This document shows, piece after piece, positions 7,104 to 57,094 of a stretch of 64,000 nt of DNA (position 1 is the first letter of the stretch; every line of letters starts with the position of its first letter). The stretch is from positions 1-64,000 of the IMG/VR virus record IMGVR_UViG_3300020576_005098; one strand, given 5' to 3'. This stretch comes from a virus (Duplodnaviria > Caudoviricetes). Made by a program: the position numbers and the translations under genes. The notes below the pieces were generated by a model that saw only the letters and a list, made by a program, of their open reading frames with translations, made no database searches and was not told the DNA's origin.

Positions 7104-7136
7104 TGTTGTTTATCTCCGTTTCGGTTGCTCGATAAA

Positions 7137-7171
7137 TAGAACAACCCAGGAAAACGACTGCTTTCCTGGGT
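7137..7171 (-). terminator. hairpin between the two sheath genes
   Basis: caacccaggaaa...tttcctgggttg inverted repeat in the intergenic gap. Confidence 0.45.
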
Positions 7172-7202
7172 TGCTACGCTGGTTTAGATTTTTGGAATCA
7201 GA

Positions 7203-10200
7203 TTATCCCAGTGTCACTCCCGAAGGAAGAAGAACAAAATCCATTGTGATGTATTCAGTTGCTCTTGTTGGGAGAACTCTGATCTGAGCATTCATTCTGT
7301 TGCTGTTCACATCATCAGCGGTGTTGTTTCTTCCATCGCAGATAACAGCAAACTGTTCAATGCCTTGTTGCAACTGGATCGCTGAGAGAACCAAGCTGGC
7401 TTCGCTGACAAAACGTTGACGAAGGGCTGGGGTGTTTTGCTCAAACAACATCCTGTTGGCAATTTGAATAACTTGGCGCTTCAGCTCAAGAATCATTCTC
7501 TTGACGTTGATACTCTCCAGGGCACTTGTTGCTTGTTGGAGTGTGTTTTGAGAGAAGAACACATAATTTGCCCCAGGGAATTTAACAATTGGGTTGATGT
7601 TTGCATCAAACAGTGTGTTTCTATCTCCTTGATTGACTCTGACCGAAGTCAAGACTACGAAGGAAAGAGAGCCACGATCAAAACCAGCAGGAGCAAACCA
7701 AGGGAATTTCACCCGGTCGTTGTAGCTCAACGCAGCAACTGCTGCGACGCTCGCTGGGACAGTTACTCTACGGCGATTTACCGAGTCATCCATCACGATG
7801 TTCGGGAAGTAAGCACCCGCCGCATTATTGTCCAAAGCCCTTGTGATAAAAGAGTTGGCTGTGTTTTTGATGGATGGGTGTCTTGTTGTTTCACCATCAA
7901 AAATACGCAGGTTGTTTTGGTCGTATGGCTGAATGTCCATTGGGTAGAAAGACAGACCATAAGCCAAGTTCTTTTCAAGAGCGTAGTTCGTAACGAGTGG
8001 ATCTCTTTGTCCTGGGATTGCCAAAATGTTATTGTTGGCAATGTTTGGGTTTGTTGCAACGTCGATTGCAGTCCTGTAAGCAACCACACAACTGTTTGTT
8101 GTTGAAACACCCGTATAATTTCTTCCGGACAGCACAGGAGATGTGCTGAAAAGCGCACCTGGGCTGATGTAGTTGCTATTGGCAACACCGTAAGTCCCTG
8201 CCAAACCAACTTCGGTAGAAGTGGATCTGTCAGTAAATCTAGCAGCGTGTTTGTCAAAAATATTCACACCATCCCAACCCCCCTGCATGAAGGTTGTAAA
8301 CTTGGTGTATGGTGAATAGTTGTTGAAAATAACAGCACTTCCACTGTTCAGCAACGAAGCAAACGTCAAACGGTTGCTGAAGTTTGTTGCTGCGTAGGTG
8401 TTTGAGTCAATAGCAGCATTGCGAAGGTAAGCAGCTTCTCTCAACAGGGTTGTTGGCGACCCTGCCGTAACATCGGCCATGCTCGTTACATTCAATGCAA
8501 CTTTGGCGAGAGAGAATTTGTTGTTGTTCAACAAGTCTGATTGAGAACCTGTTGTCAAAACACCTTGTTTCTCAATACCGGCAAATTTGGCAAAGGAAGA
8601 AATAATTGGGTTGATTTCTGTGTTGGTGTTGACGTTCAAAACGTCATTGTTGTTTCTCTCAAATTTGACACCCCAAAACAATCTTCCATCGAACACGGTT
8701 TGAGAAGAAGGAGCACCGAACACTGTTCCGGATGCTGTCAGTTGGTTTCTTGTTGTGGTGAATCTGAAAGGCACGGGTGGAACAATGGAACCTGACAACA
8801 ACGCTCCACCTGGAACCAAGCTGGAGGAGACGCCGGAAATCATTGAACGGCTGCGAGAAACGTTGTTGATCGCATCGGTCAAAGAAACGTTTGTCAACGG
8901 CATTTGATGCCCACGAAAACCAAATGGCAGCGCCCTCGCTGGAACTTCGCCCGCGTCTAGTTGCGAACTTGGAATTACGCGAATGAAATGACTGCGATTT
9001 CCGTATTTTCCTTCAACAACAATTCCTCTGTCATCGGCATCGGTCGCATCAAAGTTGAATTTGGTGCGCTTGTCACCAATGACTTTGGCAATGTAGTTTT
9101 CACTGTTTGGATCCAAGCTGAGATTGCTGAACTGTTCCAGAATTTGAGGGTCAGTGTCGGAATCGCTGAAAGCACGAACCATCAAAGAGAAGGTGCCGTA
9201 GTTTGTTGATGGATTTGTTGAAGCCAACAGGTTGGCAATGCTGATTTTGTATTTGTCGTTTGCGTATTTCCCGTCATCCCTGCTCTCCACTTGAAACAGA
9301 TCATATTCTACATTTCCGAATGGTTGGGAAATAAAGAACGGGGTTTTTGGTGTTGTGTATCTTGTGTTGAATAGACCAAATGCTTCTCCAAATGTTGTTC
9401 CGAATTGGTTGGCATATTGGGAGCCAGAAAGAATGGCAACGGTGGCTGCTGAGTTACTTGCTGACAAAACAGCAACCTCGCTATCAACCGCATAATCCAA
9501 ATACAGCAAGTGTTTCTTGGAATCAAAGTCCAAGGGGTTGGTGTTTAGAATTTTCCCGACATAGTTTTCGTTACCCGGATCCAGAGAAGCGGAGTAAATC
9601 CTCAACCCAGCGAAACCGTCGTCAGAAGCAAAGGAATTCCCGGATGAAGAAGAAAGAACCAGTTTGAACAAACCATTCATTGGTCCTGGGGAGGTACCAA
9701 CAATGGCCGCTTCGTTTGTTCCAAGACCACTTGCGTAATCAGAAGGAGTAAAAGTTCCTTCTGCATCAAATACCATGAAGCGGGAATCCGGTGTCGTGAA
9801 AAGAGTAGCTCTAACAAGGTTTACCGTTTCACTAATTCCGGGAGTTAATCCAGAAACAGAATAACTGTCATTGTTTGTGAACATTGGAAAACCAAAAGAC
9901 TCATTGGTTTGAACATGGTGATTGGCAACAATAAACTGAACGCGCCCTTGCAAAGCACCAGACGCAAACGTTGTACCCGCGCCAACCACCTTCATCCCAG
10001 CGTTAACAACCGTTCCTTGTGTTTCTGTCAAGGAGATGTCAACAGAACTGCTGTTGGCTCCACATCCCAAAACACGAATATAGTTTGCTGATGCAACTTC
10101 CGTGCCTTTGCCTTCGAAATATTTTTGAACCGCGAAGGTTGATGGGTATTTGGCATCTACAGCACCGAACTTGTTTTCAAAGTCCAAGTAGCTGCCGACG

Positions 10201-53467: not shown

Positions 53468-53541
53468 TAAACCATAGCTCAATCGGTAGAGTTCCACAGC
53501 GAAAGCTGAGGAGGATGCGGGTTCAAATCCCGCTGGTTTGT
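53468..53541 (+). tRNA. tRNA-Phe-like with 8-nt loop (GCGAAAGC)
   Basis: Intact acceptor, D and T arms; anticodon arm 1 nt long and able to fold as a GAAA tetraloop. Confidence 0.55.
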
Positions 53542-53556
53542 CATTTGTTTGTTTCC

Positions 53557-53628
53557 GGGGTCATAACTCAGCGTTGGCAGAGTGCGGCTTAAAAGCCGTG
53601 GTTGCGGGTTCGAATCCCGTTGGCTCCA
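53557..53628 (+). tRNA. tRNA-like gene with contracted anticodon loop (TTAAAA)
   Basis: Intact acceptor, D and T arms; 6-nt or shorter loop. Confidence 0.55.
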
Positions 53629-54479: not shown

Positions 54480-54550
54480 GCGGGTATGGTATATTGGTTG
54501 TGCTCCACGTTGCCAGCGTGGTAAGATCAGTTCGATTCTGGTTATCCGCA
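54480..54550 (+). tRNA. tRNA-Gly(GCC)
   Basis: Loop TTGCCAG. Confidence 0.8.
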
Positions 54551-54572
54551 CTTGTTGGAATGTCTGGTGTTT

Positions 54573-54657
54573 GGAAGCGTGTTCCGAATGGTAAGGAAAC
54601 AGCTTGGAAAGCTGTCGTGGGGCAACCCACATGCAAGTTCGACTCTTGCCGCTTCCG
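54573..54657 (+). tRNA. tRNA-Ser(GGA)
   Basis: Long V-arm; loop TTGGAAA; G73. Confidence 0.85.
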
Positions 54658-54687
54658 CTATCTTTCTTAGAATAATATCACAATGTT

Positions 54688-54975
54688 GGGCCGATAGGTA
54701 AACGGTTATACCGGGCGACTTAGACAAAATATGAGCCTTGTTTGGGAAAAGAAACCAAACAAGTGGACGCGATAATATCGGTGAAACTCCTTTGCTAGAT
54801 TGGAAGGACAATACCGAGGGAATCAGACAAAAAGTCTGAGCCCGTAGAGAGCAGATGATCGCGCACCTGAAATGGTGAAGATGTGCTCCAGACCACAAAC
54901 ACCCCCGTGTGCCAGAGTAATTTGGTGTGGTAAGATAATCGCTTATTCCCAGTTCAACTCTGGGTCGGCCTACCA
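54688..54975 (+). tRNA. tRNA-Ile(TAT) interrupted by a group I intron
   Basis: Exons 54688-54721 and 54935-54975 join to stem ggcga/tcgct with loop CT-TAT-AA, A73, encoded CCA. Confidence 0.85.
54722..54934 (+). mobile_element. group I intron (IC3-like, 213 nt, no ORF)
   Basis: U at 5' splice site with GAG guide, P2 hairpin, ATCGGTGAAA/AATACCGAG P4, R GTAGAGAGCA and S AAGATGTGCTCC forming P7, terminal omega-G. Confidence 0.88.
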
Positions 54976-55012
54976 ACAAACAAATTCTATCAACCCCAAC
55001 AAAGGAACTGTT

Positions 55013-55309
55013 ATGTCTTGGAAGTGTTTTGAGTGTGGTGCCGAAGTGACATCATGTATCATTGATGGATACCAAATCGGAGATAGATTGCTGGAAAATG
55101 TGCCCATTTTGGTGACAGAACGTAGCGAAGGAAACCTGGATTTTCGATTTGATCCAGAATTTGACGGTTACACCATCAAGCTCAACAATGAATATTGGAT
55201 GCAAAAGGCGAAAAAAGAATTTCGCAGTATTGATCTTGTAGCAATTCATTGTCCAACACCAGGATGCGACGGTGACGAAGCAGAGAACACTTACATGCCT
55301 GACGAGTAG
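55013..55309 (+). CDS. small zinc-binding protein
   Basis: CFEC...CPTPGC; start at MSWKC. Confidence 0.65.
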   Translation: MSWKCFECGAEVTSCIIDGYQIGDRLLENVPILVTERSEGNLDFRFDPEFDGYTIKLNNEYWMQKAKKEFRSIDLVAIHCPTPGCDGDEAENTYMPDE

Positions 55310-55330: not shown

Positions 55331-56257
55331 ATGAAATCCATCTCTTTGGAACGTTTGTTGTTTGAGCGTGTTGATCTTGAAAAAATCAATGCGATCCGAC
55401 AAATGTTCCAAGAAATCAAAACAAACGTCCTCACCATCCCAGCAACCCCAGCGGCTTTCAAAAGAAATGGCTGGGAAGCAGAGGAAGGATTGTTGAAAAC
55501 CCTTGTTGTTTCGGAAGTTTATGCGGAATCTGTTTTTGATAATCTCTTCATAAGCTTCGAACCTAAGATGTCTCAGTTGGCATGGGCAAACACAAATGAA
55601 GATGGAGACCTTCTCCTCGCATTTCGTATTTCACCAACTCCATCAAACATCAAAACAAAAAGCCAATTCAACTCCTGGTTTGTGAATGAAATAAAGACGT
55701 GGTTCCAGCAACCAAGTTCTGAATCTCTTTTCGTTCATGAATTTATTCATCTTCTGGACATTGCCAGAATTGGTGATGTGTTTTTCGACATTGTTGAGAA
55801 AACAACAGCCTTGGATAAACCTCTTGCCGACCTTAAAAAGGAAGCTGAGAAGTTGAAAGCGGTGTTGGACGGAACCATAAAGGGAACACCAGAGAGAAAG
55901 CAAGCCCTTGCAAACTTCAGAAGGGTGGCTGCAAAATGGAAGGAAACAAAGGAAAGGCGTTGGAAGGATTATCAAGGCTCGCCTGTTGAGACCAACGCCT
56001 TCTTTAACCAAACCATTGCTGCTGTCAAAGAAAAAGCTTCTAGGGCCCTTAGAGAGCGTGGTAAATTGGCTGCCTTGGGTGTGTTGGGAAACAGCCCGCA
56101 AGAATTCGTTTCAGTGTTCGAAAAAGAACTCGCAAAAAATATTCGACTTGATTTACTGGATTCGAAAACTCTGAAAAATTTTCAAAAGAGGGCATCGGTT
56201 TTGTATGATCAGTTGGTAGATGAGATTGAGACGGGGAAAGAGCGCAGCCTTGTATAA
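55331..56257 (+). CDS. putative zincin-like metalloprotein
   Basis: FVHEFIHLLD HExxH and downstream ETNAF; N-terminal LERLLFER. Confidence 0.55.
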   Translation: MKSISLERLLFERVDLEKINAIRQMFQEIKTNVLTIPATPAAFKRNGWEAEEGLLKTLVVSEVYAESVFDNLFISFEPKMSQLAWANTNEDGDLLLAFRISPTPSNIKTKSQFNSWFVNEIKTWFQQPSSESLFVHEFIHLLDIARIGDVFFDIVEKTTALDKPLADLKKEAEKLKAVLDGTIKGTPERKQALANFRRVAAKWKETKERRWKDYQGSPVETNAFFNQTIAAVKEKASRALRERGKLAALGVLGNSPQEFVSVFEKELAKNIRLDLLDSKTLKNFQKRASVLYDQLVDEIETGKERSLV

Positions 56258-56996: not shown

Positions 56997-57008
56997 TCGG
57001 TTTTGGTT

Positions 57009-57083
57009 ATCACACAAGCTCTGATGGTGGAGTAGCTTACCCTTATCGTAAGCACGGACAAGGTTCGAATCCTTGGTGTGATA
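57009..57083 (+). tRNA. atypical tRNA with extended anticodon arm (central TTA)
   Basis: Intact acceptor and T-arm; gcttac/gtaagc stem around CCTTATC. Confidence 0.55.
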
Positions 57084-57094
57084 TGTTTGTTTGT

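Follow-up and report, generated by a model that had tools for sequence, protein, structure and literature searches.

A split tRNA gene in a phage tRNA island

This locus raises the question of what fills a gap in a phage tRNA island and, if a tRNA gene interrupted within its anticodon lies there, what the interruption is. The window, i.e., the whole 64,000-nucleotide stretch analyzed here, derives from an 87,263-bp IMG/VR virus record, described as a giant phage, for which CheckV estimates a completeness of 34%. Between 50.1 and 57.3 kb lies a tRNA island, for which 32 tRNAs and a tmRNA were called and in which positions 54659-55012 are left blank by plain ARAGORN and Rfam. A first-pass annotation had placed in this gap a tRNA-Ile(UAU) gene at 54688-54975, with an intron at 54722-54934 whose removal gives a clean cloverleaf with A73 and CCA, and had proposed ARAGORN in its intron mode (-i) as a check. 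Run on 54600-55050, this program agrees in every respect: it calls a single gene, a tRNA-Ile(tat) spanning 54688-54975, in which a 213-nt intron separates nucleotide 34 from nucleotide 35 (gactt-intron-ataat). When the exons are joined without the intron, ARAGORN yields a 75-nt cloverleaf with A73 and encoded CCA, its anticodon UAU being of the NAU form and accompanied by A37, A38 and A73, as expected for the minor, AUA-reading tRNA-Ile. The features of the gene are collected in Table 1.

Table 1. Features of the split tRNA-Ile(UAU) gene, in window positions
Feature	Positions	Strand	Description	Support
5' exon of tRNA-Ile(UAU)	54688-54721	+	nt 1-34, last base U34	ARAGORN -i; 100% identity in nearest relative
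Group I intron	54722-54934	+	213 nt, ORF-less, ends in omega-G 54934	ARAGORN -i, covariation, R1; 97.2% identity in nearest relative
P1	54719-54735	+	54719-54722 (C32, U33, U34 and first intron A) with 54732-54735 (UGAG); U34.G at splice site	U.G in 13/13 rows
Internal guide	54730-54735	+	UAUGAG; UAU able to pair with A35, U36 and A37 of the 3' exon (P10)	invariant in 9/9 Ile introns
P2	54737-54763	+	9-bp hairpin, 54737-54745 with 54755-54763	8/9 pairs change on both sides; 100% of cells paired
P3, 5' strand	54768-54773	+	CGCGAU/AUCGCG, partner 54858-54863	6/6 pairs covary; 100% paired
P4	54778-54817	+	UCGGUG/UACCGA, 54778-54783 with 54812-54817	invariant in 13 phage introns; covaries in 36-sequence set
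P5	54788-54808	+	54788-54792 with 54804-54808, inside P4	weaker: 66% of cells paired
P6 and P6a	54818-54843	+	54818-54820 with 54841-54843; 54823-54828 with 54834-54839	both alignments
P7, 5' strand	54847-54853	+	G54847, bulged A, GAGCA; pairs with 54884-54889 (UGCUCC)	98.7% of cells paired
P3, 3' strand	54858-54863	+		covariation
P8	54864-54877	+	hairpin CACC-UGAAAU-GGUG	invariant in phage set
P7, 3' strand	54884-54889	+		covariation
P9 and P9a	54892-54931	+	54892-54897 with 54926-54931; 54899-54902 with 54907-54910	alignment of 13
P9b	54912-54925	+	54912-54916 with 54921-54925; GNRA loop GUAA at 54917-54920	5/5 pairs covary; GNRA in 13/13 rows
3' exon	54935-54975	+	A35 to A73, plus encoded CCA (54973-54975)	ARAGORN -i; 100% identity in nearest relative
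Spurious 5' extension of ORF 54872-55309	54872-55012	+		likely true start ATG at 55013

ORF 54872-55309 begins within P8 of the intron, in keeping with the suggestion of the first-pass annotation that a spurious extension overlaps the split gene, and its true start is probably the ATG at 55013. On the minus strand, ORF 54542-54979 wholly overlies a tRNA-Ser gene and the split tRNA-Ile gene. Within the 213-nt intron there is no plausible coding ORF, the frames inside it amounting to 33 aa (54738-54839, plus strand) and 35 aa (54795-54902, minus strand).

Assignment of the intron to group I

The structural elements named in the first-pass annotation, namely a U-G pair in P1, P2, P4, a P7 formed by the R and S elements (GAGCA/UGCUC) and omega-G, were all found, and the remaining helices of a group I core could be added to them. 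P1 comprises only 4 bp, and P5 and P9a show weaker pairing across the family (64-67% of cells). In relatives, the P7 strands GAGCA/UGCUC are replaced by GACUA/UAGUC; an extra pair, G134-C176, lies around the bulged A. P7 is the predicted guanosine-binding helix and forms a pseudoknot with P3, which is supported by covariation. The omega-G at 54934 is a G in 35 of the 36 aligned homologues. The core motifs GUAGAGA, CAAUACCGAG, J8/7 AAGAU and ...UCCAGACCAC align with the published seed alignment of bacterial tRNA introns, and by eye GUAG-A-GAGCA, AAU, GAAA and AAGAU (P7 bulge, J3/4, J4/5, J6/7 and J8/7) match the published seed alignment as well.

The minimum free energy fold of 54688-54975 recovers P2, P4, P5, P6, P6a, P7, P8 and P9, but not P1 or the P3 pseudoknot strand; its z-score is -4.45, and none of 200 shuffled sequences equals it. 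Pairing was then compared between homologues. In a structure-blind MAFFT alignment of 13 homologues, 89.6% of the cells in P1-P9 are paired, against 38-42% for slid partners, 37 pairs show changes on both sides, and none of 500 shuffles matches any of the measures. A larger alignment of 36 phage and bacterial sequences, which was made with a model and is biased towards it, unlike the 13-row MAFFT alignment, gives 90% of cells paired against 36-48% for slid partners, and both sides have changed in 46 of the 55 pairs. In the larger set the U.G pair occupies the 5' splice site in 33 of the 36 rows; the other three are tRNA-Asn rows, which are spliced one nucleotide further 3'.

The search with the Rfam group I model (Intron_gpI, RF00028), also proposed in the first-pass annotation, was silent: neither cmscan of 54600-55050, at the gathering score and at E<=10, nor RF00028 run on the whole 87-kb record gave a group I match. 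A cmscan match to sau-53 (E 0.039; 21.9 bits against a 100-bit cut-off) was taken as chance. The silence is explained by the seeds of RF00028, all of which are non-bacterial according to the survey of Williams (2020, 10.1101/2020.01.27.920355). We therefore built our own covariance model, R1, from 13 phage tRNA introns only. In the window, and in the whole record, its sole match is 54714-54942. R1 also matches loci of viral contigs that do pass the RF00028 gathering score (L061, L025, L056, L035 and L030), and it scores the tRNA-Leu(UAA) intron of phage Atu_ph07 at 102.8 bits, the tRNA-Arg(CCU) intron of a Microcoleus phage at 88.3 bits, and bacterial tRNA-Arg(UCU) introns at up to 187 bits. 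The covariation, the homologues and these cross-matches support the earlier reading, in which a phage tRNA-Ile(UAU) is interrupted at U34^A35 by a group I intron. By its sequence, the intervening element belongs to the bacterial tRNA (IC3-like) type of these introns, and its catalysis is predicted.

Splice sites and internal guide

The position of the junction is indicated by the fit of the intron to both exons. The base immediately 5' of GAG in the guide is U where the 3' exon begins with A (9 of 9 Ile introns and one of two Leu introns, that of Atu_ph07), and G in 19 of 19 tRNA-Arg(UCU) rows, in which the 3' exon begins with C. Four rows of the model alignment with other splice sites, one of Microcoleus Arg(CCU) and three of Asn, depart from the rule, and the second Leu intron, on contig L230, has no such pair between guide and 3' exon. 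The guide thus appears to be adapted to the 3' exon of its host tRNA, and its fit to the exons points to the junction U34|A35 and hence to the anticodon UAU. The predicted spliced junction is ...GACUU|AUAAUC... (...GGGCGACUU|AUAAUCGC...). Two displaced junctions were rejected. Splicing one base earlier on the 3' side, which the first-pass annotation had named as a possible refutation since it would give the anticodon GAU, would end the intron on an A, so that omega-G would be absent; 5' splicing after U33 would leave a 6-nt anticodon loop.

It is hardly credible, on the same grounds, that the split tRNA is a "ghost exon" artefact of ARAGORN and that the 213 nt constitute a small RNA in its own right or a spacer. 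The intron mode of the program does err in this material, reporting Ser(gct) for true Arg(UCU) genes and a 2-nt "intron" at 57008-57084, but in all homologues the two tRNA halves meet the ends of the intron precisely, one at U-1 and the other at omega-G; the intron pairs with both exons through P1 and P10, and the arrangement recurs with different exon sequences.

Sequence conservation

Nucleotide identity was determined against the only close relative in IMG/VR. The flanking protein genes are 84-85% identical and the neighboring tRNAs 92-99%, whereas the exons of the split gene are 100% and the intron 97.2% identical. Differences between introns of the window group lie in loops or keep the pairing, as in P2, where U-A changes to U.G and to C-G. 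Intron and exons appear to be under purifying selection, and their slow change compared to their neighbors argues against a dead gene. An intron-less allele was sought in IMG/VR through the two flanking proteins, which led to one relative contig only, with the intron present.

Decay of the intron into a non-splicing relic, leaving the tRNA-Ile(UAU) gene dead, is accordingly very improbable. The lack of a homing-endonuclease ORF, the silence of RF00028 and the seldom used AUA codon would be in line with it, but all core helices are intact, compensatory changes are found in five lineages, and the fully conserved exons and the 97% conserved intron stand beside drifting genes.

Homologues and their distribution

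A BLAST match within the intron pointed to LR745208.1, an uncultured phage of 485 kb, in which ARAGORN places a tRNA-Ile(tat) with a 210-nt intron at the identical site and with compensatory changes in the helices. P8 and J8/7 together served as a motif for further homologues. In IMG/VR this motif yielded 24 loci, 19 of them true homologues, including three further carriers of tRNA-Ile(UAU), related introns after U34 of tRNA-Arg(UCU) and tRNA-Lys(UUU) and after U35 of tRNA-Glu(UUC), and introns in tRNA-Asn(GUU) and tRNA-Leu(UAA). More than 120 bacterial genomes contain the motif as well; the tRNA to which ARAGORN assigns it there is nearly always tRNA-Arg(UCU), with insertion after U34, and in no case tRNA-Ile.

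Two patterns specific to the Ile form, one running from P8 to omega-G plus AUAA and the other from the UAUGAGCC guide through P4, gave no true match in 185,579 prokaryote species genomes; both scans require exact motifs, and diverged copies may escape them. The same patterns revealed eight further Ile carriers in metagenome contigs and three in IMG/VR. A gapped pattern of the 5' domain, run against genome and viral contigs, was discarded, all of its 87 bacterial stretches and 8 extra viral matches being chance occurrences in coding DNA. The intron is found at 34/35 in five distinct sets of tRNA-Ile(UAU) exons (the window group, L001, L044, L230 and L223), and the lineages of viral or metagenome contigs that carry the Ile(UAU) intron number at least five. 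A maximum-likelihood tree of intron cores has long branches and weak deep nodes and is compatible with a single as well as with multiple origins of the Ile form; it places the intron of a CAU tRNA (L224/L225) firmly within the phage Arg(UCU) introns. HNH_3 homing-endonuclease ORFs are present in the long relatives (620-934 nt).

Several other introns came to light in these searches. The 15-mer ACAATACCGAGGGAA occurs in IMG/VR mostly in group I introns for which ARAGORN gives no tRNA placement, and it served as the bridge to RF00028. The IMG/VR contigs L035, L056/L076 and L061 each contain 3-5 group I introns within a few kb, several of which pass RF00028; for none of them does ARAGORN give a tRNA host. 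The cultured jumbo Agrobacterium phage Atu_ph07 (L260; MF403008.1, ~112.9-113.25 kb) carries a tRNA-Leu(UAA) with a 278-nt intron after U34, which is unannotated and overlapped at its 3' end by the CDS AUZ94936.1. In Microcoleus phage My-WqHQDG (L259), an annotated 286-bp "tRNA-Arg" consists of tRNA-Arg(CCU) and a 213-nt intron. On contig L230, which also bears an Ile(UAU) intron, a second R1 match (7110-7353, 112.9 bits) is probably a tRNA-Leu(UAA) intron, since its 3' exon begins with AAAAUC. Finally, a 934-nt group I intron with an HNH_3 ORF lies after C34 of an Ile2-like CAU tRNA (L224:4555-5564, also in L225 and L095), where the 5' splice pair would be C-G rather than U.G.

Ancestry and use of the tRNA

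Once joined, the exons share 68% identity with E. coli tRNA-Ile2, whose anticodon arm they match except at nucleotide 34 (C34 to U), and only 46% with the phage's own tRNA-Ile(GAU). The E. coli query was confirmed at 100% identity as an annotated tRNA-Ile. The pairs C4-G69, C5-G68, G27.U43 and C29-G41, which we take to be identity elements of tRNA-Ile2, are present. Isoleucine identity is predicted from this resemblance and from these elements. The two CAU tRNAs in the window resemble initiator and elongator tRNA-Met in the features we take to be characteristic of them; if both are indeed tRNA-Met, the split gene would be the phage's sole reader of AUA. In 42 long phage ORFs, AUA accounts for 5.0% of the Ile codons (2.6 per 1000 codons), and this rarity suggests that the tRNA completes a near-full set rather than meeting a heavy demand.

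The first-pass annotation had regarded tRNA-Ile(UAU) as rare in bacteria and as bypassing TilS. The bypass is plausible, the exons being of the tRNA-Ile2 type with a C-to-U change at position 34, although AUA makes up only 5% of the phage's Ile codons. The rarity does not extend to phages, since intron-less tRNA-Ile(UAU) genes with an identical anticodon arm occur in at least 24 viral contigs. The UAU anticodon is therefore not unusual in phages, and the intron is optional. Among intron-less Ile2-like tRNAs of viral contigs, at least 119 have CAU as against 25 with UAU, a ratio that was set aside because many CAU copies lie at the ends of contigs, probably as host genes that border a prophage. 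Decoding of AUA by tRNA-Ile(UAU) independently of TilS takes place in Mycoplasma mobile and in a suppressor of Bacillus subtilis; these tRNAs are likewise Ile2-like with U34, but are intron-less and cellular.

Proposed splicing pathway and maintenance of the intron

The anatomy, homology, covariation and sequence conservation described above are supported directly, and very probably the gene encodes a minor phage Ile tRNA (Ile2-like, with U34), interrupted at U34/A35 by an ORF-less group I intron that would splice itself out, leaving a tRNA charged with isoleucine and reading AUA, the intron itself being most likely a neutral remnant of a mobile element. In the precursor, the guide segment GAG (54733-54735) would form P1 with C32-U33-U34, and the U34.G wobble would mark the 5' splice site. 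Free guanosine bound by P7 would attack after U34. The UAU of the guide would then pair with A35-U36-A37 as P10, omega-G 54934 would occupy the G site, and U34 would attack behind omega-G. Ligation of the exons should give the 75-nt tRNA with the anticodon UAU, able to read AUA without lysidine and thus without TilS. The intron may be regarded as a neutral, ORF-less remnant of a mobile element because same-site relatives in phage tRNAs carry HNH ORFs, because intron-less UAU genes are common, and because AUA amounts to only 5% of Ile codons.

One may ask whether the intron is instead kept for a benefit, such as GTP-dependent gating of the AUA tRNA, shielding of the anticodon loop from host factors, or a need for U-1 that drove or locked the change from CAU to UAU. 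The intron does evolve as slowly as the surrounding tRNAs (97.2%, against 84-85% for the ORFs), and the HNH-bearing intron after C34 of an Ile2-like CAU tRNA (L224/L225/L095) shows that both states occur, U34 leading with five lineages to one. Slow change, however, is expected of any ribozyme that must be excised from a needed tRNA; U34 does not require the intron, given at least 24 intron-less tRNA-Ile(UAU) genes; AUA is rare in the phage; and the CAU and UAU counts are confounded by host tRNAs at prophage ends. We thus consider such a benefit quite unlikely. A coupling of intron and anticodon, in which a 34/35 intron favoring U-1 entered an Ile2 CAU tRNA (the state seen in L224/L225/L095) and selected for C34 to U, is unlikely too. 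If it were true, a selfish ribozyme would have helped to rewire, or would now gate, AUA decoding in giant phages, with the tRNA made independent of TilS.

Relation to known bacterial tRNA introns

According to sequence, the nearest relatives of the neutral remnant proposed here are the 34/35 introns of tRNA-Arg(UCU) in bacteria and phages, which are closer than those of tRNA-Leu. In the 2020 survey (10.1101/2020.01.27.920355), these form the Arg.3Ug class; they occur, for example, in Bacillus, Exiguobacterium and Arenicellales, and they share with the window intron the insertion site, P8-J8/7, P1-P9 and the GNRA loop of L9b. They differ from it in the host tRNA, which is tRNA-Arg, and in the guide base, a G that pairs with C35 where the Ile form has U. 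Furthermore, they are mostly longer (270-370 nt, and about 630 nt with an ORF) and occur in cellular genomes, among which the exact-motif scans gave no Ile form.

The first-pass annotation had drawn a parallel with the cyanobacterial tRNA-Leu(UAA) intron. The parallel holds for layout and site: both introns are inserted at CUU^A, with U.G at P1 and an IC3-type core. The Leu intron is nevertheless not the nearest kin, since it resides in another tRNA and its sequence is more distant than those of the Arg(UCU) introns. Self-splicing, which is predicted for the window intron, has been demonstrated experimentally for the tRNA-Leu(UAA) intron (papers cited in PMC3984707). Group I introns also interrupt minor AUA-reading tRNA-Ile genes in the Azoarcus tRNA-Ile2(CAU) intron (Ile2.5Ug) and in the Ile2.2Ug class, and the core motifs are common to all of these; the latter two sit after U36 and U33, respectively, of a lysidine-requiring CAU tRNA, whereas the window intron sits after U34 of a UAU tRNA.

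The 2020 survey brought the known bacterial combinations of tRNA and site up to 21; among its seeds, Ile2 is represented after U33 and U36, and tRNAs for Arg, Lys, Thr and Ser after position 34, with no Ile(UAU) after U34 (10.1101/2020.01.27.920355). A 2014 review of group I introns in bacteria states that every phage intron known at that time lay in a protein-coding gene, despite the many tRNA genes of phages. A full-text literature search for group I introns in phage tRNA genes found no paper, including none later than that review. What is new here is the host gene, in a phage setting with little earlier documentation; the ribozyme is of a known kind, its mechanism is ordinary and the biology is otherwise conventional.

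A related set of introns is now apparent in phage tRNA genes, cultured phages included, with Ile-UAU, Arg-UCU, Lys-UUU, Glu-UUC, Asn-GUU, Leu-UAA and Arg-CCU as hosts. Such split genes are missed or mis-annotated by standard tRNA and ORF calling, and the Rfam model is blind to them. With lengths of 208-216 nt, these putative ribozymes are ready candidates for splicing assays.

Other features of the island

The split tRNA-Ile gene is preceded by a promoter-like TTGCCG-16-TAGAAT (in 54646-54687) that ends 15 nt upstream of it, and the 29-nt spacer before the gene is 100% identical in the relative, as compared to 84-85% for the flanking ORFs. Directly past the gene, a 98-aa ORF (55013-55309) with CxxC and C..C motifs is absent from the nearest relative, in which the homologue of 55331-56257 starts 33 nt after exon 2. 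Searches of Pfam and PHROGs with the proteins flanking the split tRNA, the 98-aa ORF included, gave no match.

Other tRNA-like genes in the island are irregular in their anticodon arms. The one at 57008-57084 has an 8-bp acceptor stem and a 9-nt anticodon loop, CCCUUAUCG; ARAGORN reports it as tRNA-Stop(tta) in plain mode and as Ile(tat) with a 2-nt "intron" in intron mode. Those at 53468-53542 and 53557-53628 have odd anticodon loops and are called "tRNA-???" with the anticodon (aa), the first of them becoming (gaaa) in intron mode.
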